The notes beneath the pieces were generated by a model. It saw only the letters and a list, made by a program, of their open reading frames with translations. It searched no databases and was not told the DNA's origin. The translations under genes and the position numbers were made by a program. A DNA stretch of 64,000 nucleotides from Candidatus Doudnabacteria bacterium (GTDB taxonomy: Bacteria; Patescibacteriota; Doudnabacteria; UBA920), in NCBI GenBank assembly GCA_016218585.1, contig JACRDK010000030.1:24277-88276 (forward strand), read 5' to 3'. The first letter of the stretch is position 1; each line of letters opens with the position of its first letter. Positions 1 to 14,282 of the stretch are shown here, piece after piece.

Positions 1-10
1 ATCTTCAGCT

Positions 11-1105
11 TTGGTAAAAGTTTTAAAAAGCGCAATTCCTTACGTTGCGGTGTTTGTAGTCGGTTTGTTTTTGTACTATTTCTTTTTTAGCAGCGTAAAT
101 TTTTCTTCCCTTTTGAGCTTTAAAAATAATACGCCGGCAACTCCAAAAGAAACCGCGTTGCAACAGTTGGAAAAGCAGGACTTAACCGCCTATAACAAAT
201 GGATTAGCGGTTTCTACTATGACGTTTCCGACGCAAAGGTTTTAGACCCGGAAACCGACAACTCCGGCAACGGCCTTTCTAACTTTCAAAAATATCTGTT
301 AAAACTCAATCCGAAATCTTACGATACTTTAGGTTTGGGTATGGCAGATAGCCAAGCCCTGGCTATGAATATTAGCCCGGTCTCCGGCGGCCAAATAACC
401 GATGCGCAAAAAGACATTATGTCCAAGTATGTTGATATGGAAGTGGTTATGAACCGCTTGGCCTTGTCTAATATGCAGAATCAGGGACGCGTAGCCGGCG
501 CCGCGGTTGGCAACAACACCTACTATAACGGCAGCACAAGCAGCAATAGCAACATTAACAATAATAACTATAACGGCAACTATAACAATAACAGCAATAG
601 CAATAATAACGGTTATAGCATCACCCCAACATCGGGCAGCGATGACATAGAAGTGAATACTTCTGTTGCGGGACGTTTGGAAATTCCGGACTTGAAAATT
701 TCCGTGCCGATTATGTGGACCTCCGACCCAAAAAACTTTGACAAAGATTTGCAATCCGGCGTTGTCCATTATCCGGGCACAGCTATGCCGGGACAGATTG
801 GCACTACTTATATTTCCGGACACTCCAGCAATTATGTTTGGGCGAAAGGAAGTTACAATAAAATTTTCTCCACCTTAGGAGATTTAGCGGACAACACATC
901 CTTTAAGATTACCGTGGTGCATAAAAACGGCAAAGTCGCCATATTCCATTACGTTGTTACTTCCAGGAAAGAATATTCTCCGACCGATCAGGAGCAGTTT
1001 AAAAATACCGGCAAGTCTATTGTGGCTTTGTCGACCTGCTGGCCGGTTGGTTCTACCGCCAAACGCTTAGTGGTTTTTGGCACCTTAACACAAGTAGAAA
1101 AATAA
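11..1105 (+). CDS. Sortase-family transpeptidase (membrane-anchored; Asn-rich low-complexity linker); possibly 5'-partial since the frame is open to position 2
   Basis: N-terminal TM segment IPYVAVFVVGLFLYYFFF. Sortase hallmarks: conserved His in ISGHSSNYVW, catalytic Cys in the TLxTC-type motif ALSTCWP, downstream Arg (AKRLVVFGTL). Asn/Tyr-rich tract NNNNYNGNYNNNSNSNNNGY between anchor and catalytic domain. TTG start at position 11. Confidence 0.7.
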   Translation: MVKVLKSAIPYVAVFVVGLFLYYFFFSSVNFSSLLSFKNNTPATPKETALQQLEKQDLTAYNKWISGFYYDVSDAKVLDPETDNSGNGLSNFQKYLLKLNPKSYDTLGLGMADSQALAMNISPVSGGQITDAQKDIMSKYVDMEVVMNRLALSNMQNQGRVAGAAVGNNTYYNGSTSSNSNINNNNYNGNYNNNSNSNNNGYSITPTSGSDDIEVNTSVAGRLEIPDLKISVPIMWTSDPKNFDKDLQSGVVHYPGTAMPGQIGTTYISGHSSNYVWAKGSYNKIFSTLGDLADNTSFKITVVHKNGKVAIFHYVVTSRKEYSPTDQEQFKNTGKSIVALSTCWPVGSTAKRLVVFGTLTQVEK

Positions 1106-1115
1106 TTTTTTATCT

Positions 1116-1155
1116 CCCTGACATAAATTACGCGGCCGCGTAATTTATGTCAGGG
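1116..1155. repeat. 40-bp perfect palindrome (ccctgacataaattacgc ggcc gcgtaatttatgtcaggg) centred on GCGGCCGC, at the junction between the sortase gene and a GC-rich island
   Basis: Read directly; the reverse complement of the left arm equals the right arm. No U-tract follows on either strand, so it is not a canonical intrinsic terminator. Confidence 0.6.
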
Positions 1156-1306
1156 ATGAGTTGATTTAAATAATATAGAGCGGGCGCGCCCGTGTTTATA
1201 ATCTGATTGTAAAAGGGTATTGTAAACATCGCGTGCTCGGCTCTCGGCCGACACATTCGTCGGCTCAGGCCGAGAACAATACAACAAAAGAAGAGGGGAT
1301 AAGACA

Positions 1307-2668
1307 GTGAATTTTGGACAACTGATTGCGATTCTGATGACCGTTCTGCTAATCGGCGGGGCTTTTCCCGTCGCGGCGCAGAGCCAACCGGTATCCACAC
1401 AAACCGCCCAGCCCCACCCGGGTGTCCGGGTGAGCGTGGAGAAGTTTCCGCTCATTCCGCCGGTACCGGGCCAGCGGCCGATTTATACGATCGGCCAGAT
1501 CGTATTCGCCGCCGAAGAAATATACAAAAGCGGCGTCAACGGCTCGTTTGTGAAGGCTTTTGGCCAGGCCAAGAGCCACGTTGAGCAGGCACAGGCAATC
1601 ATCTCCTTTGCCTCCAAAGAGTTGCTCGCGCAGCTCGAGGAGATGAAGAAGTCACCCGAAGGGCCGTTGCCGGAACCGGAGCAATATCAAGCGCTCAAGG
1701 ACCCGAAAGTGGCTTTGGACTACGCCGCTGTCAAACAATCGTTTGTGCCTTTTTCCGAATGGGGTGAAAGTCCTTTCGGAGAGGAAGTAACGGACTGGAA
1801 AGGTCTCTGTGAGACCTATCAGGATACCATGGCCGCGATGATCCAACGCACTAACTATTCACCTGCAATGAAGGTGGAATGGGCAGACGCGTTGGCTCAT
1901 GTGTGTGCCAACGGCCTTGACGGTCGCTACTCCAAGGTGGTGGATTTGGTTGACTGGCCGCTCTGGCAATGGACTACTGGTCGTACTGTTGGGACATCTC
2001 ATTCTGGAAACAGAATACCTGGTGTCAACGTGATGTACGTCGGTGGCCATGCTTCCGCCCTCTATCTCTACCTGCCCAAGTCGGCTACGGTAGTGATGCA
2101 CGGGTTCAAGTGCAAGGGGAATCCGATTGTTCCTTTCGTCATCGGTTCATTCCAGGTGACGAAGGAGACGACGAGGATTCCTGCCTGTTTGGGGCTTAAT
2201 GGCGATTCAGGCTTTGTCCAAACGGGCAAGACTGTTCGTTTCAGCGCTCACTTTGACAACCCTGCCGGAGTGCCTTTTGACTTCCGCTTCATCCTCACGG
2301 ACAAGCGGACCAGCAAAACCAAAGTGCTTGGTGAAAACCAGCCTGAGGTGACGTTGGAGCAGAAGGAGGCCGGCGAGTACGAGGTAAGTGTAACTGGCGA
2401 ATTCGAAGGGAAGCCAATACCAGCCTTGGGCTGTGTAATGGCTATCACCTTCGTTAAGCCCATTCCGCCGCCTCCGCCGACGTTTGTCACTACCACGCCT
2501 CCGCCGACAAGGCCCGCAATCGTTCCGCCGCCGCCCAAGAAGGGTGGGCACGGATGGATCTGGGTTCTTGTAGCGGCAGGTGCTGGCGCTGGCATTGGTC
2601 TGGCACTGATGGGTGGTGGAATTCGCAAGGATCCGGCAACTGCCGCTGGCACCGGCTGGAGACCGTAA
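1307..2668 (+). CDS. Hypothetical secreted, membrane-anchored protein: signal peptide, about 380-aa unknown domain, Pro-rich stalk (PPPPPTFVTTTPPPTRPAIVPPPP) and C-terminal TM helix; encoded in a roughly 58% GC island
   Basis: Long ORF with GTG start. N-terminal hydrophobic signal LIAILMTVLLIGGAFPVAAQ. C-terminal WIWVLVAAGAGAGIGLALMGG TM segment. Base composition is markedly higher in GC than all flanking genes. The 5' leader (1160-1300) contains several GC hairpins, and a T-tract hairpin follows at about 2680-2735. Confidence 0.6.
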   Translation: MNFGQLIAILMTVLLIGGAFPVAAQSQPVSTQTAQPHPGVRVSVEKFPLIPPVPGQRPIYTIGQIVFAAEEIYKSGVNGSFVKAFGQAKSHVEQAQAIISFASKELLAQLEEMKKSPEGPLPEPEQYQALKDPKVALDYAAVKQSFVPFSEWGESPFGEEVTDWKGLCETYQDTMAAMIQRTNYSPAMKVEWADALAHVCANGLDGRYSKVVDLVDWPLWQWTTGRTVGTSHSGNRIPGVNVMYVGGHASALYLYLPKSATVVMHGFKCKGNPIVPFVIGSFQVTKETTRIPACLGLNGDSGFVQTGKTVRFSAHFDNPAGVPFDFRFILTDKRTSKTKVLGENQPEVTLEQKEAGEYEVSVTGEFEGKPIPALGCVMAITFVKPIPPPPPTFVTTTPPPTRPAIVPPPPKKGGHGWIWVLVAAGAGAGIGLALMGGGIRKDPATAAGTGWRP

Positions 2669-2849
2669 TTCACTGTTCGTAAAAGCATTGGTGGTCGGGG
2701 AGAGGAGCAATCCTCTTTCCGACCTACCATTCATCAATTTTTAACTTTTTGGCTTAATTAAGGCAAGTAGTTAAAAACGGAAGAATAGTAGGTATTAAGA
2801 CAATTAAAAAAATAAACCTCTTATTTATAAGGTAAATCAATAAAAATTA

Positions 2850-2878
2850 TTGACAAACTTATAAAAAAAGTGTATAAT
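2850..2878 (+). promoter_or_regulatory. Consensus sigma-70-type promoter (TTGACA-N17-TATAAT) upstream of the giant surface protein gene
   Basis: ttgaca at 2850-2855, a 17-nt spacer, tataat at 2873-2878, within an extremely AT-rich 250-bp intergenic region. Confidence 0.55.
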
Positions 2879-2957
2879 TATAGGTTAATATAATAATAAG
2901 TAAATTTGTAATAATTAATTGGATAATTTAGAATTAGCTAATTAATAAGGCAAACAT

Positions 2958-5900
2958 ATGAACAACATTTTTTCTAAGTTAAGCATAAAGGTCTCTGGCG
3001 CAATTGGCGTTTCAATTTTTTTGGTTGCCATCGCCGTAATCGGTTTGGCTCCTAGACAAGCCACCATTAGCCGTGCTGATGGTTGCAGTCCGGTTTACAC
3101 CTCGCCGGTTTTTAACCCGTACCCTGTTACCTGGGAAGATTCCGCAGGTTATAACTGTACGGATTTTGCCGTTCTTTCCGGTAATGTCCAAGGCGCAGGT
3201 TTTTGGACTGATAATTTTCAGGCCCAGCCAGGCGACAGTATTAGCATGAGAATTTACGTGCACAACGGCGCGGGCAGCAATTCCGGCGCAGTTATGTACG
3301 GTGTTAATGTTAATACCAATATAGATACCACAACCGGAACCAGCCACGTAATTACTACTACTTTAAGCGCCAGCAATGCCGCTTCTAAAAGCGGTAGTGT
3401 GACTATTAATACTCCGGCCGGCAGCCACTTGGAATTAGTTTCCGGTGATACCAGCTTTGCGGTTGGCGATATGCAGCCGTGCTTTGAGTATTCGAAAGCT
3501 TTTCGGTTTACTTTGAAAGTCGTTGCTGATACTGTTGTTACTCCTCCTCCGGCAGAAACTGTAAGCGGGCAAATTTCCTCTTCTTTGGGAATTTGTAAAG
3601 CCAATGGCTTATACGATGCTAATGTTTCCTGGAATACTAACGCTTCCCAGGCCTTAGTCACTGTTTCCGATCCGAATTTAAACTCCGGCAACTATTACGA
3701 CAATGACAAAGTTTATAGCTACAGCAAAACTAGCAATGAAACCGCAAGTTGGTTAGCTCCTAATACCGCTTACCGTTTTACTTTGTGGTCAATTGACCCA
3801 AGCGGTACAGACCATAGCTTCCGCGACTTAAGCAATAACATTGTTAATGTTAAAGCTGTAAGACTTTATGAAACTTGGGTAACCGCCGGCGCTTCTTGCA
3901 GCCAGGTTACGCCTCCTCCGGCTAATGTTACCGGAACTATTTCCACTTCTCTTGGTATTTGTAAAGCCAATGGTTTATACAATGCCAACGTTTCCTGGAA
4001 TACCAATGCCACTCAAGGTTTGGTTACTGTTTCTGATCCTAACTTAAAATCCGGAGACTACTACGATAACGATAAAATTTATAGCACAGCCGAAACCAGC
4101 AACGAAACTGCTGATTGGTTAGCTCCGTTAACAGCATATCGCTTTACTTTGTGGTCAATTGACCCAAATGGCGTTAGCCACACTTTCCGCGATATGAGCA
4201 ACAATGTTGTAACTTACAAAGTTACCCGTTTGCAGGAATCTTGGGTAACCGCCGGCGCTTCTTGCGACCAGGTTACTCCTCCTCCGGCTAACATTACAGG
4301 AACTATTAATTCTTCTCTTGGCATTTGTAAAGCCAATGGTTTGTACAATGCCAACGTTTCCTGGAATACCAACGCGACTCAGCCGCTTGTTACCGTAAGC
4401 AACCCGCCTGCTAATTCCAATAATAACTACGACAACGATAAATTTTATAGCACCACTAAAACCGGTAATGAAACTGCTGATTGGTTAACCCCAAATACAG
4501 CTTATCGCTTTACTTTGTGGGCTATTGACCCAAATGGCGTAAACCACACTTTCCGTGATTTGAACAATAACGTTGTAACTTACAAAGTTACTCGTTTGCA
4601 GGAAACTTGGGTTACAGCCGGAAATACTTGTATAGATAACCCGCCGACTTATGAAAATGTTGTTTGTAGCGTAAGCCCATCTAACTTAAATGTTGGCCAG
4701 AGCGCTACCTTTACCGCAGACAAAGGCAATGGTACTTATGCTTGGTCTGTTACTGGAGGCTCAGTAACTTCCAGCAATCAAAAAACATTTATTAGCACCT
4801 TCAACAACGCCGGGGCATATATTGCCACCGTGTCCAGCAACGGCAAAACCGCCAGCTGTACTGTTCAGGTAGTTAATGACAATGTTTGTGTAGCAAACAC
4901 CAACTATTATTTAAACGCCACCGCTCCTGCAAAACAAGGAACGGGGTATACTGTAAAATTATCTTGGGGTTTTGATGGTAATCATCAAATTAAATTAACC
5001 CAGGTAAGCTCGGACGGTAGCGAATTAACTTTGGCTACCAGCCCGGACAAAACCGGAAGTTTAAATGTCTTTAATTTACAAGCAGGTAAAACTTATACAT
5101 TTAAAATGTATGATATTGACCCGACTTGTGGAAAGTTTTTAACTTCAACTCAGGTTGTAGTTCAGTCAAATCCGGATCAGTTAGTCTGTACATCCGATAG
5201 CTCTTCCTATAGAGTCGGCGACACCGCTGTCTTTAGAGCCAATGGCGGCAGCGGCAGTTATTCCTGGTCCGGCACCGGCAACCCGGTTTCCGGCACCGGT
5301 TCAGTATTTAATACTTCTTACAACACCGCTGGTAATAAGACTGTTACTGTAACCAGCGCCGACGGGCAAACCGCTCAGTGTAGCACAGTTGTTAATACTG
5401 TTGTTACTGAAAACGGCCAGGTTCGCTTAACCAAAGAAGTAAGAAACATCACCAACAGCGAAACTGCTTTTGCCCACGCGACCTCCGCCAAGCAAAACGA
5501 CACTGTTGAATATCGCATTAAAGTTTGGGCCGGCACTTCCGTAACCTTAACTAATGTTATAGTCAACGACAGCTTTGCTTCCGGTCTTTCTTACATAGAT
5601 AACTCTTTATTTGTAGACGGCACATCTCACGCGGCTGGTTTAACTTCCGGCGGCCTTACCTTTACTTCCGTTGGCCAAACGCCGTTGGTAATTATTTACC
5701 GCGCTAAAGTTACCGCCACTATGGGAACTATTGTAAACACCGCCCAGGCTGTAGCTTCCAACGCTACCAACACTGCTGTTGACCAGGCTTTGGTAAATGT
5801 TGCTTATGTTAATCCGGGACAGCCTTCCTTGTCTATTATTAAACAAGTGAAGAATGTTACCCAGAACACCAACTATGATACTTCGGTTTTGGCTAATAAA

Positions 5901-7289
5901 AATGACGTTGTTAAATACCAGGTCATTATAAAAAATGTCGGCCAAGCTACCGCCAAGAATGTTTTCTTTAACGACAGCAATCCAGCCCAGGTCCAGCCGT
6001 TAACCGGCCTTACTGTCTCCATTGCTTACACCGGCGGCATTCCTGCCGGAGTTGCTTTGGGTGATTTAGCCGCAGGCGCTACCGTGACTATTACTTATCA
6101 GGGAACTGTGAAAGTTGACAGCGGCACTATATTAAACGTAGCCACCGCTTCTTCCGACAACGCAACCAGCCAGAATGCTTCCGCAACAGTAGTTGTTAAT
6201 ACTCAAAACAACAACGGCGGCAACAGCAACTACAACTATTGCGTTAACTATTCCTGCAATACCACAATCAACAACACTACAAACACAACCAACACCACAA
6301 CCACAAATAATAACTACACTTACAACAACTACAGCTACGTTTACATTAACAGCACCGGCAATACTGTACCGGCTAATCAATATAGCCAGTTAAGCATTAC
6401 CAAATCTGTTAGAACTGTAAATAATGGTACTTACCAAAACAGCGTAAACGTAAACAATGGCGATACCGTTGAGTTCGAAATTGTGGTTACTAACTCCGGC
6501 AATCAAAACATAAACAATGTCCGCTTAACCGACAATTTGCCGAGCGGCTTGAATCTGGTAAACGGCAGCGTGCGCGTAGACGGATCTTACGTCTCCAGCA
6601 GCAACCTTTACAGCGGAATGTATTTGGGCAGTTTGTCTACCGGCCAGCAAAAGCGCATTAACTTCCAGGCCACAGTAAACAATTCTAATTCCAGCATTCA
6701 AAATATTGCTATGGTTTCCGGCGACAACGCTTCTTCCGTTCAGGATGATGCCTGGGTGTTTACAAATACGGGTTCTGTCCAGGGCGGCAATGTAAGCCTT
6801 ACTTACAGCAAGCGCGCCATTAACGAAACCAAGAGCCAGGACGCGACTTCTGTAGTTGCCTCCAAGGAAGATTACATTACCTACACCTTAACCGCTTCCA
6901 ACAACGGCAACACTCCGGCCAACAACTTCATTATTACCGATGATTTGTCCCAGGTCTTGCCATATGCCGACATTGTCGACAACGGCGGCGGCAGCGTGAA
7001 CGGAAATGTAATTTCCTTCCCGGGCCTTACTGTTCCGGCTTACGGATCTGTTTCCAGAAGCTTTAAAGTTAGAGTTAAATATTCTTTGGCTGATAACTTG
7101 GCCTATGTTATGACTAATACTTACGGCAACACCTTAAATATTAGAATTAATAACCCGCAGGTTTTGGGAGCCTTTGTTGCTCCGAAGACCGGTGCGGAAA
7201 CCGGCGCCTTTGCTTTCTCCGGATTGTTAACCGCCGCCGCAGCCTTGTTTAAGCGCAGAAAAGAAATTCTAAAGTTAATCTTCACCTAA
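2958..7289 (+). CDS. Giant cell-surface protein (1443 aa): signal anchor, three tandem roughly 120-aa repeats, multiple DUF11-like conserved-repeat domains, Asn/Thr-rich low-complexity region, C-terminal tripartite sorting signal (APKTG/AETG motif, hydrophobic stretch, KRRKE tail)
   Basis: N-terminal TM IGVSIFLVAIAVIGLA. Three near-identical repeats TPPPA..SLGICKANGLY.ANVSWNTNA...AYRFTLWSIDP. DUF11-like units such as VEYRIKVWAGTSVTLTNVIVNDSF, VKYQVIIKNVGQATAKNVFFND and VEFEIVVTNSGNQNINNVRLTDNLP. C-terminus FVAPKTGAETGAFAFSGLLTAAAALFKRRKEILK resembles LPXTG/LAXTG-type cell-wall sorting signals. Confidence 0.85.
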   Translation: MNNIFSKLSIKVSGAIGVSIFLVAIAVIGLAPRQATISRADGCSPVYTSPVFNPYPVTWEDSAGYNCTDFAVLSGNVQGAGFWTDNFQAQPGDSISMRIYVHNGAGSNSGAVMYGVNVNTNIDTTTGTSHVITTTLSASNAASKSGSVTINTPAGSHLELVSGDTSFAVGDMQPCFEYSKAFRFTLKVVADTVVTPPPAETVSGQISSSLGICKANGLYDANVSWNTNASQALVTVSDPNLNSGNYYDNDKVYSYSKTSNETASWLAPNTAYRFTLWSIDPSGTDHSFRDLSNNIVNVKAVRLYETWVTAGASCSQVTPPPANVTGTISTSLGICKANGLYNANVSWNTNATQGLVTVSDPNLKSGDYYDNDKIYSTAETSNETADWLAPLTAYRFTLWSIDPNGVSHTFRDMSNNVVTYKVTRLQESWVTAGASCDQVTPPPANITGTINSSLGICKANGLYNANVSWNTNATQPLVTVSNPPANSNNNYDNDKFYSTTKTGNETADWLTPNTAYRFTLWAIDPNGVNHTFRDLNNNVVTYKVTRLQETWVTAGNTCIDNPPTYENVVCSVSPSNLNVGQSATFTADKGNGTYAWSVTGGSVTSSNQKTFISTFNNAGAYIATVSSNGKTASCTVQVVNDNVCVANTNYYLNATAPAKQGTGYTVKLSWGFDGNHQIKLTQVSSDGSELTLATSPDKTGSLNVFNLQAGKTYTFKMYDIDPTCGKFLTSTQVVVQSNPDQLVCTSDSSSYRVGDTAVFRANGGSGSYSWSGTGNPVSGTGSVFNTSYNTAGNKTVTVTSADGQTAQCSTVVNTVVTENGQVRLTKEVRNITNSETAFAHATSAKQNDTVEYRIKVWAGTSVTLTNVIVNDSFASGLSYIDNSLFVDGTSHAAGLTSGGLTFTSVGQTPLVIIYRAKVTATMGTIVNTAQAVASNATNTAVDQALVNVAYVNPGQPSLSIIKQVKNVTQNTNYDTSVLANKNDVVKYQVIIKNVGQATAKNVFFNDSNPAQVQPLTGLTVSIAYTGGIPAGVALGDLAAGATVTITYQGTVKVDSGTILNVATASSDNATSQNASATVVVNTQNNNGGNSNYNYCVNYSCNTTINNTTNTTNTTTTNNNYTYNNYSYVYINSTGNTVPANQYSQLSITKSVRTVNNGTYQNSVNVNNGDTVEFEIVVTNSGNQNINNVRLTDNLPSGLNLVNGSVRVDGSYVSSSNLYSGMYLGSLSTGQQKRINFQATVNNSNSSIQNIAMVSGDNASSVQDDAWVFTNTGSVQGGNVSLTYSKRAINETKSQDATSVVASKEDYITYTLTASNNGNTPANNFIITDDLSQVLPYADIVDNGGGSVNGNVISFPGLTVPAYGSVSRSFKVRVKYSLADNLAYVMTNTYGNTLNIRINNPQVLGAFVAPKTGAETGAFAFSGLLTAAAALFKRRKEILKLIFT
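3540..4620 (+). repeat. Three tandem roughly 360-bp direct repeats, highly similar at nucleotide level, inside the giant surface protein gene
   Basis: Repeat starts at about 3540, 3900 and 4260 all read gttac(t/g)cctcctccggc...ggaactatt...tctcttgg(t/c)atttgtaaagccaatgg(t/c)ttatacaatgc; the protein units are about 120 aa each. Confidence 0.8.
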
Positions 7290-7670: not shown

Positions 7671-8846
7671 ATGGACAACACATACTTGCAGGAGCTAATA
7701 AACGAAACCAAACTTCGGGGCGGCGGGTTATTGCTTAATTATGAAGATAAGCCGGCTGTGGTTGTTTTAACCGTGGATAAATATAACAGCTTGCTAGAGG
7801 GCCAAGAGTTAGGAATTAAGAATCAAGCGGTTGAAATTCAAACAAGCCCCAAGGCAGAACTAGCCAGTACCCAATCTGTAAAAAAAGTTTTGGTTACCGG
7901 GGGAGCCGGATATATTGGCGGGCATTTGGTTCGGGAGTTAATTAAGCAGAATTATGAAGTGGTGGTTTTAGACAATCTTTCCACCGGCCGCAGGGAGAAT
8001 ATTGATCCGAAGGCAATTTTTGTGGAAGGAGATTTAGCCGATGTAAATTTGCTCCGCGATATTTTTGCCAATAACAACATATCCGCGGTTTTTCATATGG
8101 CCGCCAGCCTGGAAGTGGAAGAGTCTGTTAGGGAACCGGAAAAATATTTTAAAAATAATACCCAAAACACTATCGGACTTTTAGAAGTTATGAAAGAGTT
8201 GGGGATTAACAAAATAATTTTTTCCTCAACCGCCGCGGTTTATGGCGAAAATGCCAAAGTTCCGATTAACGAAAACTCCCCGCTGCATCCCAATAATCCG
8301 TACGGCTCCAGCAAGCTGCTCACCGAAAGGAATATTAAATATTTTTGCGAGTACCTTGGTTTTAAGGCCGTAATTTTCCGCTATTTTAACGCCTGCGGTT
8401 TTGACGAAGAAGCCAATATTTTGCCGACCCACCAGTCTCACTTAATTTACAAAGTTATGCAGGTTGCCAAAGGAGCCGAACCGATTTTAAAAATTTTTGG
8501 CAACGACTACGAAACATTTGACGGTACCTGCATTCGCGATTATGTCCATGTGCTGGATATTGTCTTGCCGCATATTTTGGCTTTGGAAAAGTTAAATGGA
8601 GATTTGAAATTTGAAATTATAAACATTGGCACCGGCACAGGCTTAAGCGTTGCCCAAATTGTCAACGGAGCTTCAGAAATCATCGGCCGCATTATTCCCA
8701 TGGAAACCGCGCCGCGCCGCGCCGGGGACGCGCCGGCAACGGTTGCCGACAACTCCAAACTGGTTAACTTGCTGGGCTATGAGCCTAAATTTAGCAGCCT
8801 AAATAACATACTTACCAGCAGCTGGGAAGTTCTGAAAAAAGATTAA
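7671..8846 (+). CDS. galE: UDP-glucose 4-epimerase / NAD-dependent epimerase-dehydratase with a roughly 70-aa N-terminal extension resembling a Phd/YefM antitoxin fold
   Basis: Rossmann motif VLVTGGAGYIGGHLV, catalytic YGSSKLLTE (YxxxK), C-terminal epimerase domain. N-terminal KPAVVVLTVDKYNSLLEGQEL resembles YefM [20 protein letters not shown]. No in-frame stop or alternative start between extension and epimerase core. Confidence 0.85.
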   Translation: MDNTYLQELINETKLRGGGLLLNYEDKPAVVVLTVDKYNSLLEGQELGIKNQAVEIQTSPKAELASTQSVKKVLVTGGAGYIGGHLVRELIKQNYEVVVLDNLSTGRRENIDPKAIFVEGDLADVNLLRDIFANNNISAVFHMAASLEVEESVREPEKYFKNNTQNTIGLLEVMKELGINKIIFSSTAAVYGENAKVPINENSPLHPNNPYGSSKLLTERNIKYFCEYLGFKAVIFRYFNACGFDEEANILPTHQSHLIYKVMQVAKGAEPILKIFGNDYETFDGTCIRDYVHVLDIVLPHILALEKLNGDLKFEIINIGTGTGLSVAQIVNGASEIIGRIIPMETAPRRAGDAPATVADNSKLVNLLGYEPKFSSLNNILTSSWEVLKKD

Positions 8847-13694: not shown

Positions 13695-14282
13695 ATGATT
13701 GCACTGATTAGTGTTACTGACAAAACCGGCATTCAGGAATTTGCCGCCACCCTTTCAGCATTGGGATTCGATCTGGTTTCTACCGGCGGGACAGCAGACA
13801 CTCTTCGCCTCGCCGGGCTTAAAGTAAAAGATGTTTCGGAGCTGACGGGCGTGCCCGCAATGATGGGCGGCAGAGTGAAGACCTTGGATTACCACATTCA
13901 CGCCGGAATCTTGGCGGATCGGGACAATCCGGAGCACATGGCCGATGCCGCAAAGTATGGCATCGAGATGATTGACCTGGTTGTGGTTAACCTCTATGAT
14001 TTTTTGGGTACAGCGGAAGATCCGGATGTTTCTTTGCCGGAACTTACCGAAAGCATCGACATTGGCGGACACACTCTGGTCCGTGCCGCGGCTAAGAACT
14101 GGAAGCATGTCGGTGTGGTGGTTAACCTGCAGGACTACGACCGGATTTCTGAAGAGCTGGTGCAGCGGGGTGGCTGGTTGAGCAGCGGCACCAAGTTAAG
14201 TTTGGCCATTGAGGCCCTCGATGCCGTCGCTTGTTATGACAGGTCTATTCCAGACGTTCTCAGGGACCGTGCCGGCTACTAG
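13695..14282 (+). CDS. purH: Stand-alone IMP cyclohydrolase / MGS-like domain corresponding to the N-terminal half of PurH (AICAR transformylase domain absent); GC-rich, with degenerate conserved motifs, so a possible decaying horizontally acquired fragment
   Basis: ALISVTDKTGIQEFAATLSALGFDLVSTGGTADTL, GRVKTLDYHIHAGILADRDNPEH, VVVNLYDF, IDIGGHTLVRAAAKNWKHVGVVVNLQDY align to the PurH IMPCH domain (actinobacterial-type HAGLLAD). The conserved KTLHP and NLYPF motifs are altered to KTLDY and NLYDF. About 55% GC against about 40% in neighbours. Own promoter-like TTGACT/TATAAT and a strong SD aaggaggtg 7 nt before ATG. Confidence 0.8.
   Translation: MIALISVTDKTGIQEFAATLSALGFDLVSTGGTADTLRLAGLKVKDVSELTGVPAMMGGRVKTLDYHIHAGILADRDNPEHMADAAKYGIEMIDLVVVNLYDFLGTAEDPDVSLPELTESIDIGGHTLVRAAAKNWKHVGVVVNLQDYDRISEELVQRGGWLSSGTKLSLAIEALDAVACYDRSIPDVLRDRAGY

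Follow-up and report, generated by a model that had tools for sequence, protein, structure and literature searches.

How does a gene that is far richer in GC than its surroundings come to lie in a surface-protein locus of Candidatus Doudnabacteria bacterium, and what might its product do there? The stretch of DNA analysed here (64,000 nt of one contig, hereafter the window) encodes a 453-aa membrane-anchored surface protein, whose family is labelled X, and the gene lies between a sortase and its putative substrate, as the original prediction had placed it. That prediction also took the protein architecture as typical of high-GC Gram-positive bacteria and raised the possibility that the gene derives from a host. 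The attachment of CPR/Patescibacteria to partner cells is mostly unknown beyond the type IV pili of Saccharibacteria.

Architecture and anchoring of X

The X gene starts at 1307, as originally called, and its coding sequence ends at 2668; the proposed end at 2740 takes in a 3' hairpin (2689-2729). The signal peptide, Pro-rich stalk and C-terminal transmembrane (TM) helix that had been described are real, according to the ORF call, the Pro count of the stalk and a Kyte-Doolittle scan, which finds two hydrophobic segments only (aa 1-26 and aa 416-439). The product is 100% identical to the NCBI entry 'hypothetical protein HY918_05245 [Candidatus Doudnabacteria bacterium]' and has the following parts:

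1307..2668, + strand: X coding sequence, GTG start, 453 aa, predicted type I membrane protein, GC 56.4%
1307..1378, + strand: signal peptide, aa 1-24, MNFGQLIAILMTVLLIGGAFPVAA/QS, with the hydropathy peak at aa 1-26 (...PVAA/QS)
1412..2182, + strand: head domain, aa ~36-292, with an N-terminal strand, about seven helices and a beta-sheet
2183..2461, + strand: PKD/Ig-like beta-sandwich, aa 293-385, between C294 and C376
2459..2545, + strand: polyproline stalk, aa 385-413, 14 Pro in 29 residues
2552..2665, + strand: Gly/Ala-rich TM helix, aa 416-439 (WIWVLVAAGAGAGIGLALMGGG), and short tail (GGGIRKDPATAAGTGWRP), without LPXTG or APKTG

A comparably hydrophobic N-terminus is found at the start of all homologs, and Pro-rich linkers in nearly all of them, within a length range of 360-660 aa. 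One family member, P0005, has no TM segment. The head domain contains three residues that are invariant across the family (P156, W220 and C269) and the conserved motifs WGxxPFGxP, DWPLWQWTTG and HGxxC(R/K)GNPxVPF. X is a real protein, as these motifs, the AF2 model (pLDDT 78) and the PKD-like sandwich indicate.

Scans of X and all 14 family members against Pfam, NCBIfam and PHROGs gave a single sub-threshold match, to the PKD domain PF00801 (22.4 bits, E=1.2e-4, aa 297-364; Pfam gathering threshold 23.5), a model that matches 1 of the 14 members. The predicted beta-sandwich of X can be superposed on solved PKD domains, which have an Ig-like fold, although a PKD module would cover only about 20% of X and its score falls just below the gathering threshold. 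For the head domain (aa ~36-292), Pfam, NCBIfam, PHROGs, PDB and the viral models gave no matching family and no known fold was matched, and a PDB sequence-profile search with X returned nothing below E=0.1. The thioester of internal thioester domain (TED) adhesins is formed by a conserved Cys and a conserved Gln, and this candidate was rejected for X: C269 is invariant, but the partner Gln is not kept, Q221 (in WQW) giving way to E, R, S or W in P0008, P0009 and P0011-P0014, and TED Pfam models matched no member of the family.

Neither AP(K/R)TG nor LPXTG precedes the TM helix in any of 13 X homologs, and the LPXTG cell-wall anchor model TIGR01167 does not match X (for the neighbouring adhesin it gives a weak match, E=0.035). 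Since X is devoid of the APKTG sorting signal borne by the adjacent adhesin, it is predicted to be TM-anchored rather than sortase-anchored and, judged by its sequence, it is not a sortase substrate, unlike the adhesins, which carry AP(K/R)TG.

A conserved sortase, X and adhesin locus

The neighbours of X in the window are a sortase gene and, behind a promoter of its own, the gene of a fibrillar adhesin whose stalk domain type, CLIPPER, is known from such adhesins (PMC12617251):

11..1105, + strand: sortase gene, TM helix, linker of about 200 aa and catalytic domain; PF04203, E=1e-20
2850..2878, + strand: adhesin promoter, perfect sigma-70 match, TTGACA-17-TATAAT, 12/12
2958..7289, + strand: CLIPPER/DUF11 fibrillar adhesin, 1443 aa, C-terminus ...VAPKTGAETGAFAFSGLLTAAAALFKRRKE, APKTG sorting signal

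The sortase ORF starts at the window edge and its N-terminus is probably cut off. It scores 42.9 bits against TIGR01076 (cut-off 39.35); among class-level models class C is best, but far below cut-off. The adhesin matches PF01345 (4.8e-23), PF24346 and TIGR01451, and is presumed from its sequence to be the sortase substrate; the AP(K/R)TG signal is kept in the adhesins of the window, L001 and L018 (L numbers denote related loci). The perfect sigma-70 match shows that the adhesin gene is served by a promoter of its own, and in L001 and L008, too, the adhesin genes are preceded by TTGACA-17-TATAAT or TACAAT promoters.

The order sortase-X is kept in nine loci (the window, L001-3, L004-7/L017, L010, L013, L014, L018, L019 and L020), with the sortase directly upstream of X, and in six of them (the window, L001, L013, L018, L019 and L020) a CLIPPER/DUF11-type adhesin gene comes next. 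Identity between the window sortase and those preceding five X orthologs is 49-63%. Upstream, rml sugar genes and a reverse-strand CAP gene are found wherever the contig extends that far. The P0008/P0009 branch of X lies elsewhere, at a locus where no sortase is in view, so that the linkage between X and sortase is not absolute.

Leader, ribosome-binding site and 3' hairpin

The intergenic leader between the sortase and X is rich in hairpins, as the original prediction had it; there are three, including cgggcgcgcccg and ctcggcc...ggccgag, but the leader is 201 nt long (1106-1306) and not 160 nt. Its elements and the hairpin downstream of X are:

1115..1156, no strand assigned: perfect 42-nt palindrome centred on GCGGCCGC, just past the sortase stop; 21-nt arms, 100% complementary, MFE -32.3 kcal/mol
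1182..1271, + strand: structured 5' leader of two hairpins, 1182-1238 and then the GC-rich 1239-1271
1293..1299, + strand: Shine-Dalgarno-like GAGGGGA, read from the sequence, within A-rich, unpaired letters and 7 nt ahead of the GTG
2689..2729, + strand: GC-rich 3' hairpin, GGTCGGGGAGAGGAG-CAAT-CCTCTTTCCGACC, with a moderately T-rich tail; -31.3 kcal/mol for 2669-2745

The palindrome is probably a terminator or attenuator hairpin, and palindromes with the same core and different arms occur at the same place in L004 (7464-7499) and L019 (120-159). A reading of the flanking palindromes as integron attC sites was rejected, because their core sites, on inspection, depart from RYYYAAC/GTTRRRY, an integrase is missing and the gene order does not vary. 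In the hairpin at 1182-1238 a GC clamp (GGGCGCGC...GCGUGCUC) surrounds an AU-rich hairpin, and the segment 1177-1306 has an MFE of -43.4 kcal/mol (z = -2.79 against dinucleotide shuffles). In all eight ortholog leaders tested, the predicted fold has 2-3 hairpins ahead of a purine-rich stretch that stays unpaired (z -1.5 to -5.2), and GGAGG-type sites stand at the same distance from the start in X orthologs. The leaders of L004 and L019 can be aligned with five compensated pairs, though their proteins belong to different subfamilies, and a covariance model built from the two finds only these two; the MAFFT alignment of the leaders is poor, no leader element is common to the whole family, and a conserved leader RNA is confined to one sub-clade. 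Rfam 15 gave nothing better than E=0.16 at 1-3200 of the window, and across 12 related loci no match reached gathering score. The 3' hairpin is probably the terminator of a monocistronic unit.

Distribution of the family

X has five matches among 5.8 billion clustered proteins, and an exhaustive HMMER scan of 1.84 billion representatives found 13 cluster representatives; no homolog outside Doudnabacteria-type loci was found in either set, and profile searches for further members returned those already known. Where a homolog could be assigned a source, this was Doudnabacteria or an unnamed metagenome contig, and all those with names are Doudnabacteria. With this distribution and the nine-locus synteny, the proposed link from architecture to a high-GC Gram-positive, host-derived protein is not supported. 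Homologs found only in close relatives with matching composition had been named as the result that would speak against it; they are indeed confined to close relatives, but the composition is unmatched, every ortholog being GC-rich. The best reading is that X is a vertically inherited, Doudnabacteria-specific family, not one borrowed from a host.

Composition, codon usage and predicted mRNA structure

The GC content of the X coding sequence (56.4%; GC1 0.60, GC2 0.47, GC3 0.63) compares with 41.1% for the window and 43-45% for the flanking genes, and lies 3.9 sd above the other 45 long window ORFs (GC3 z=3.1). The original figure of 58% was right in calling the gene GC-rich and slightly high for the whole coding sequence, although the highest 200-nt windows of X reach 60-62%. 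Directly after the 3' hairpin GC falls from 62% to 20-25%, and the adjoining adhesin gene has 45%. All 13 X family genes have about 52-57% GC (52.4-56.6%), while the adjacent sortases have 40-50%. The GC-richness of X is a conserved trait of the gene family and not a mark of foreign origin.

With the amino acids of X and the codon usage of its genome, a GC3 of 0.457 would be expected, against 0.626 observed. The favoured codons are AAG, GAG, GTG, ACG and CTC/CTG, whereas TTA is removed; ATC makes up 0.48 of Ile codons in X and 0.07 in genome codon usage, and in five orthologs from AT-rich genomes the shares are 0.35-0.48 versus 0.04-0.08 for Ile ATC and 0.67-0.81 versus 0.22-0.38 for Lys AAG. 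No ribosomal-protein or tRNA genes are present in the 64,000-nt window.

The X coding sequence is also predicted to fold more stably than its composition requires. In dinucleotide shuffles the mean z is -2.07 (17 segments) against +0.28 to -1.42 for three neighbouring genes, and for orthologs -0.96 to -1.57 against +0.33 to -0.80. Synonymous shuffling across the whole gene gives z -8.75 for X and -2.1 to -7.05 for orthologs; with local 50-codon synonymous shuffling none of the 46 window genes is as extreme as X (z -7.28). The median excess is -5.07 kcal/mol per 150 nt for the X family (n=13) versus -1.27 for other genes (n=84; Mann-Whitney p=5e-8), and a comparison of the two strands gives more structure on the sense than on the antisense strand for 9 of 10 genes. 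The trait is neither uniform nor exclusive: in L001 and L010 some neighbours have a local-shuffle z at least as extreme as that of X (-2.2 and -2.0), and some genes outside the family are also strongly structured (the L020 CAP gene, -4.5; the L018 epimerase, -4.4; both neighbours in L011). The orthologs are too diverged for covariation of the coding-sequence structure to be read, and the near-identical contigs (L001/L002; L004/L005/L017), with 0-2 base differences, too alike.

Alternative explanations of the GC-richness

Recent acquisition from a high-GC Gram-positive organism, possibly the host, would make the GC content un-ameliorated donor composition, and the strongly atypical GC and codon usage and the sharp edges of the GC-rich block, which coincide with the limits of the transcription unit, could be read this way. 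A recently transferred gene was nevertheless rejected: X occupies the same slot in nine loci across diverged Doudnabacteria, where sortases are 49-63% and X proteins 22-48% identical, it has no homolog beyond such loci in either protein collection, and at this divergence synonymous sites are saturated, yet GC3 is 0.54-0.70 in every locus. No integrase, tRNA gene or repeat flanks X in the window, and the other GC-rich window ORF carries no structure signal (z only -0.84 with local synonymous shuffling). Since every X ortholog is GC-rich, recent transfer drops out and a conserved compositional anomaly remains; this explanation is largely refuted and has a very small probability. Repeated replacement of the GC-rich unit at the sortase slot, swapped among Doudnabacteria or carried by a mobile element or phage, fares a little differently and is improbable. 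The unit is compact with hairpins or palindromes at its bounds, all three genes tested on contig L011 have about 55% GC and are hyper-structured, the next gene in L010 (collagen-like) also has 57% GC, and X-protein and sortase identities are uncorrelated over six pairs, although this last point is uninformative because the sortase identities span only 49-63%. Against replacement, mobility genes adjoin the unit at no locus, tblastn of X against 50,697 phage records gave no match, slot and orientation are identical in nine loci, and in L013, a locus of 48.5% GC, the structure excess of X is still present (z -4.65).

The causes acting within a vertically inherited gene differ in how much of the signal they cover. 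GC-biased gene conversion supposes that X, fast-evolving and often recombining, has had its GC lifted by repair bias, with the RNA structure as a by-product, and it is unlikely, though several observations agree with it: X evolves much faster than the adjacent sortase, GC is up at all three codon positions and in nearly all two-fold codon families, the rise does not follow an 'optimal codon' pattern, and gene conversion is frequent in the GC-rich adhesin genes (P1/MgPa) of AT-rich Mycoplasma genomes, which counts for this rival. However, native X folds better than shuffled versions in which GC, dinucleotides, codon usage and protein sequence are kept, the larger excess on the sense strand is left unexplained, the adhesin next door is equally surface-exposed at only 45% GC, and the window contains no donor repeats or paralogs (blastn, word size 7, of 1101-2800 against the window gave self-matches and palindromes). 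The same search also disposed of X as a target of a diversity-generating retroelement, a template repeat with A-specific mismatches being absent from the window. Translational selection on a very highly expressed gene whose preferred codons happen to end in G or C is a slight prospect; the C-ending Ile, Phe and Asn codons favoured in X are usual for G34 tRNAs and the ribosome-binding sites are strong, but AAG, GAG, GTG, ACG and CTC/CTG are equally up, which is a general GC shift and not a tRNA-matched set, and the structure excess persists against synonymous shuffles that keep codon usage. Constraint by an overlapping antisense gene or non-coding RNA is most improbable. Long antisense ORFs do exist at 2207..2737 (176 aa) and 2248..2730 (160 aa), but their positions differ among X orthologs and they lie mostly in the frame where stops would stand opposite sense TTA, CTA and TCA; X has few of the first two, so that the antisense ORFs are ordinary shadow ORFs; moreover, structure is stronger on the sense strand, and no Rfam family was found on either strand.

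Proposed role and significance

Starting from what was observed (the gene and its architecture, restricted distribution, synteny, GC/codon anomaly and excess predicted structure), we infer a role for the protein and a purpose for the RNA structure. The favoured explanation, held with reasonable though not strong confidence, is that X is a vertically inherited accessory or anchor protein of the sortase/adhesin system whose transcript has been selected to be GC-rich and highly structured. X is a fixed part of a conserved surface locus made up of the rml genes, the reverse-strand CAP gene, the sortase, X and the CLIPPER/DUF11 adhesin with APKTG. It would sit in the membrane beside the sortase, with the stalk holding the head domain outside the wall, and may work together with sortase and adhesin there, whether as an accessory or anchor factor associated with the sortase or as a further attachment protein tethered to the membrane. 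The best-supported cause of the GC-richness is selection acting on the transcript, to stabilise it or to control its translation, and this pressure might also drag the amino-acid composition towards Gly, Ala, Pro and Val.

A more far-reaching version, which we put forward tentatively and consider rather unlikely, is that the transcript itself has been under selection throughout Doudnabacteria history as an mRNA (or bifunctional RNA) that is rich in GC, hyper-structured and probably very long-lived, while the protein diverged to 22% identity. If so, in ultra-small, ribosome-poor episymbiont cells a rarely transcribed X could keep supplying protein of the attachment apparatus, and X would be a gene-specific, lineage-wide case of RNA folding driving codon usage and even amino-acid composition.

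The analysis defines a conserved Doudnabacteria surface module composed of sortase, X and CLIPPER fibrillar adhesin, in which X, a family restricted to the phylum, lacking annotation and bearing an unmatched head domain, is a concrete target for localisation and interaction studies. X holds GC, codon usage and RNA folding far from genome equilibrium across deep divergence, which warns against equating compositional outliers with horizontal transfer and makes it a test case for mRNA-structure selection in reduced genomes.

Comparison with known systems

The P1 adhesin gene of Mycoplasma pneumoniae has about 53% GC in a genome of 40%, an enrichment linked to RepMP repeats and gene conversion. 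Like P1, which is an attachment protein, X is membrane-anchored and Pro-rich, and its gene lies more than 10 GC points above a reduced, AT-rich genome; it differs in having no repeats or paralogs in the window, and to our knowledge no RNA-structure excess has been reported for P1. Stem-loops at the 5' end stabilise the mRNAs of genes for abundant envelope or crystal proteins, such as the ompA 5' UTR, the Lactobacillus slpA leader and the Bacillus thuringiensis cry3A STAB-SD. The predicted X transcript is similar in its long hairpin leader, exposed strong Shine-Dalgarno sequence, 3' hairpin and monocistronic surface-protein gene, but in those systems the signal is confined to the UTR, whereas in X the GC shift and the surplus of structure run through the whole coding sequence, and no leader sequence is shared by the family as a whole.

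The basal pilin FctB of Streptococcus pyogenes is composed of an Ig-like domain followed by a proline-rich, wall-spanning tail and is encoded in a sortase/adhesin locus (PMC7900414), so that X shares with it the Ig-like domain, the proline-rich stalk and the type of locus. FctB, however, ends in LPXTG, and sortase links it to the wall, while X ends in a TM helix without a sorting motif and has an extra head domain of 250 aa. The acceptor lysine of the last FctB strand has no conserved counterpart in X, and the idea of a basal pilin-like acceptor lysine was rejected, as K386 is missing from P0002, P0005, P0008 and P0013.

SafA (sortase-associated factor A) of Actinobacteria is a TM-anchored protein of 52 aa encoded directly downstream of the sortase; its sortase linkage is conserved across the phylum, its function depends on an aromatic FPW motif, and it binds sortase and blocks its cleavage by signal peptidase (PMC9282373). 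X is much larger (360-660 aa), with a large extracellular head, Ig domain and stalk, shares no sequence similarity with SafA, lacks the FPW motif and actinobacterial homologs, and in the P0008/P0009 branch is not beside a sortase. The likeness lies in the gene directly downstream of the sortase, a linkage kept in nine loci, and in a TM-anchored product whose DWPLWQW motif contains an invariant Trp and whose TM helix, rich in Gly and Ala, lends itself to helix packing.

The X gene and its neighbours

The ORF of X, the 453-aa surface protein, is real and its product is identical to an NCBI entry from a Candidatus Doudnabacteria MAG whose sole annotation is "hypothetical protein". The predicted layout (secretion signal, proline-rich stalk and membrane anchor) was borne out; a hydropathy scan found exactly two hydrophobic segments (aa 1-26 and 416-439). 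X also lies, as proposed, between a sortase gene and that of its putative substrate, a 1443-aa CLIPPER/DUF11 protein (the adhesin) with a terminal APKTG sorting signal.

Features of the locus (window coordinates) and of X (residues)
1-1105: sortase ORF, TTG start at base 11
201-nt intergenic X leader: three hairpins, 1115-1156, 1182-1238 and 1239-1271; fold z = -2.8
1307..2668, + strand: X CDS, GTG start, 453 aa
aa 1-26: signal peptide, cleavage between ...PVAA and QS (hydropathy scan)
aa ~36-292: head domain, with N-terminal strand, ~7 helices and sheet (AlphaFold model)
aa 385-413: polyproline stalk, 14 prolines
aa 416-439: TM anchor
2689-2729: strong hairpin ending the X unit
2850-2878: perfect sigma-70 promoter of the adhesin gene, TTGACA-17-TATAAT
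2958-7289: adhesin gene

The window sortase (364 aa) is 60-130 aa shorter than its orthologs (403-494 aa), and the real start of the protein is almost certainly to the left of the window. Fibrillar adhesins use CLIPPER/DUF11 as a stalk domain (PMC12617251); in the adhesin, three copies of a ~122-aa tandem repeat, with the motif SLGICKANGLY at aa 209, 331 and 453, precede the CLIPPER/DUF11 repeats. Its non-canonical sorting signal, AP(K/R)TG, which has a conserved ...LIFT tail after it, is common to the L001 and L018 adhesins. Further downstream (7671-8846) is an NAD-dependent epimerase with a ~70-aa N-terminal extension (MDNTYLQELINETKLRGGGLLLNYEDKPAVVVLTVDKYNSLL...) that has no Pfam match and by eye looks like a Phd/YefM-type antitoxin; in L018 an epimerase occupies the same downstream position.

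Distribution and origin

Five X family proteins were retrieved from a collection of 5.8 billion clusters and 13 from 1.84 billion representatives searched exhaustively with HMMER; profile searches added no further members. The original idea of a host-derived gene was wrong and fails its own test, the search for homologs: the named members are Doudnabacteria, no actinobacterial or other Gram-positive homolog was detectable by similarity in either collection, and X directly follows a sortase gene in nine loci (window, L001-3, L004-7/L017, L010, L013, L014, L018, L019 and L020) among the 11 lineages, window included, with genomic context. No phage match to X was found. Longer contigs share the order rml sugar-nucleotide genes, DUF5656-like gene, CAP-domain gene (opposite strand), sortase, X and CLIPPER/DUF11-type adhesin. 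P0014, from the most divergent subfamily (~21% identity), is also flanked by sortase and adhesin; P0008 and P0009, of the same subfamily, are at a different locus (contigs L011 and L021), each preceded by a perfect (12/12) sigma-70 promoter and adjoining a GC-rich coiled-coil membrane protein gene. Between lineages, sortase identity is 49-63% and X identity just 22-48%, and X is thus an old, fast-evolving, vertically held part of the locus.

Composition and predicted mRNA structure

The reported GC-richness is genuine: the X CDS has 56.4% GC (GC3 0.63) in a window of 41.1%, +3.9 sd relative to the other 45 long ORFs, and the GC-rich block has sharp edges matching the limits of the X transcription unit. 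All family genes examined have 52.4-56.6% GC (GC3 0.54-0.70), compared with 40-45% for the adjoining sortases in AT-rich genomes and ~50% in two GC-richer ones. The GC3 of X is 0.626, against 0.457 expected from its amino acids and the genome codon usage, the shift being mostly in AT-rich codon families and repeated in orthologs of four other AT-rich loci.

Codon fractions in X and in the other window genes
Ile ATC: 0.48 and 0.07
Lys AAG: 0.74 and 0.27
Leu TTA: 0 and 0.34
Thr ACG: 0.35 and 0.09

In the protein, Gly, Pro, Ala and Val are increased and Lys, Asn, Ile and Leu reduced. Because the X proteins are so diverged, their synonymous sites must be at equilibrium, so that the GC anomaly reflects a sustained force and not a residual donor signature.

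Four controls concurred in predicting more secondary structure than usual for the X mRNA. After dinucleotide shuffling (150-nt windows), X had a mean z of -2.07, negative in 17/17 windows, against -0.85 for the sortase, -1.42 for the adhesin and +0.28 for an epimerase; seven orthologs gave -0.96 to -1.57 and their neighbours +0.33 to -0.80. Gene-wide synonymous shuffling, which keeps protein and codon usage, gave -8.75 for X, -2.1 to -7.05 for orthologs and +0.6 to -3.3 for sortases. Shuffling within 50-codon blocks, which keeps local composition, left X the most extreme among 46 window genes (z -7.28; runner-up -3.5). The only other GC-rich window ORF (13695-14282, 54% GC) scored just -0.84, so GC alone is not the source of the predicted signal. 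Over all loci, the median excess was -5.07 kcal/mol per 150 nt in 13 family genes and -1.27 in 84 others (Mann-Whitney p = 5e-8), and in 9/10 genes it was greater on the sense strand than on the reverse complement, a bias that favours an origin in RNA over one in DNA or in an antisense product. The L001 and L010 orthologs are no clear outliers in the 50-codon-block test, and a few genes unrelated to the family are likewise predicted to be strongly structured.

ORF 13695-14282 (GC3 0.61) encodes an MGS-like domain and just the first ~60 residues of an AICARFT/IMPCHase (PurH) domain, which makes it a truncated or split purH-like gene. In L010, the CLIPPER adhesin is replaced after X by a 238-aa collagen-repeat (GxP) protein with signal peptide and C-terminal TM helix (3622-4338), whose gene has 57% GC yet no excess structure (z -0.48). 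On the 4.2-kb contig L011, all three tested genes have ~55% GC and are strongly over-structured (z -5.3 to -7.9).

Leaders, promoters and palindromes

The leader hairpins are real, three in number, and both strings quoted for them are present. All ortholog leaders tested (8/8) have two or three predicted hairpins, after which a purine-rich stretch containing a strong ribosome-binding site is left unpaired. The unit thus predicted (5' hairpins, exposed Shine-Dalgarno site, structured body, 3' hairpin) has the layout of the stabilised mRNAs of abundant envelope proteins. Although their X proteins belong to separate subfamilies, the leaders of L004 (7868-8003) and L019 (216-364) are alignable over ~120 nt, have a common GCGGCCGCCAGGUCGCA hairpin and five compensated base pairs (such as GGGGUUCAAACCCC vs AAGGUUCAAUUCCUU), and constitute a candidate sub-clade-specific leader RNA; no other leader matched their covariance model, and no X leader matched Rfam. 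Since most sortase-locus leaders have no good sigma-70 promoter, X may be transcribed by read-through from the sortase gene or from a weak or alternative promoter.

Perfect 36-42-nt palindromes stand right after the sortase stop in the window (1115-1156, 42 nt), L004 (7464-7499) and L019 (120-159), with wholly different arms and always GCGGCCGC at the centre; this motif was not found in the available sequence of the L001, L010, L013, L014, L018 and L020 loci. GCGGCCGC occurs five times in the window (1.3 expected), and may mark either a terminator hairpin with a preferred apex or a site where a protein binds. The interval between the probable X terminator and the adhesin promoter contains an imperfect, AT-rich palindrome of 72 nt (2722-2793) whose 36-nt arms are 81% complementary. 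The adhesin genes of the window, L001 and L008 have sigma-70 promoters at or near the consensus (TATAAT replaced by TACAAT in L008), with similar flanks (TTGACAAA...). Upstream of the P0008 gene (L011 1547-1680), four successive GC-rich hairpins with CCAATG in or near the loop (1566, 1587, 1612, 1644) look like an array of putative binding sites.

Possible explanations

The literature searched yielded no description, for CPR bacteria, of a conserved and gene-specific combination of high GC, codon usage unlike that of the genome and excess mRNA folding, and this is the interesting part of the case. It seems reasonably probable that X is a surface protein of the sortase locus, inherited vertically, and that selection keeps its transcript GC-rich and structured. 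GC-biased gene conversion, acting on a surface gene that evolves fast, explains the GC but not the shuffle-controlled, strand-biased structure, and is unlikely. Exchange of a cassette among Doudnabacteria or through a mobile element is more doubtful, given a fixed slot and no mobility genes, and translational selection on the codons is less probable again, the shift being a general move to GC and not tRNA-specific. Recent horizontal transfer from a host, with no Gram-positive homolog detected in the two collections, and an antisense gene, with the excess on the sense strand, are both highly improbable.

The X protein and its relation to known systems

An AlphaFold model of X was built with 14 family sequences (pLDDT 78), in which the stalk, the Gly/Ala-rich TM helix and the short tail are all of low confidence. 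In the head domain, P156, W220 and C269 are invariant throughout the family; the domain also carries the motifs WGxxPFGxP, DWPLWQWTTG and HGxxC(R/K)GNPxVPF, and had no match in Pfam, NCBIfam, PHROGs, PDB sequences, PDB folds or BFVD. The family is unannotated and phylum-restricted. Architecture varies: P0005 (L004 8001-9242) ends before any TM helix and is perhaps secreted, while P0002, P0006 and P0011 have 115-200 additional residues, inserted in each of them between stalk region and TM helix, and long N-terminal extensions are present in P0006 and P0011 as well. Several tails end in a beta-strand-like ...(V/I)xFSxG or ...GFKVRF motif.

Because X lacks the AP(K/R)TG signal common to the adhesins of three lineages, it is apparently anchored by its TM helix and not a sortase substrate. 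At the membrane it would work together with both the sortase and the CLIPPER adhesin, its role being that of an accessory or anchor factor, or else of a second attachment protein that is tethered.

SafA, a membrane protein of 52 aa whose gene directly follows that of the housekeeping sortase in Actinobacteria, shields this enzyme from signal peptidase (PMC9282373), and FctB is a basal pilin that combines an Ig-like domain with a proline-rich tail (PMC7900414). X resembles SafA in the position of its gene and basal pilins such as FctB in architecture, but has the defining sequence features of neither. Both its plan (head, Ig domain, proline stalk and membrane anchor) and its setting in a sortase/adhesin locus are familiar.
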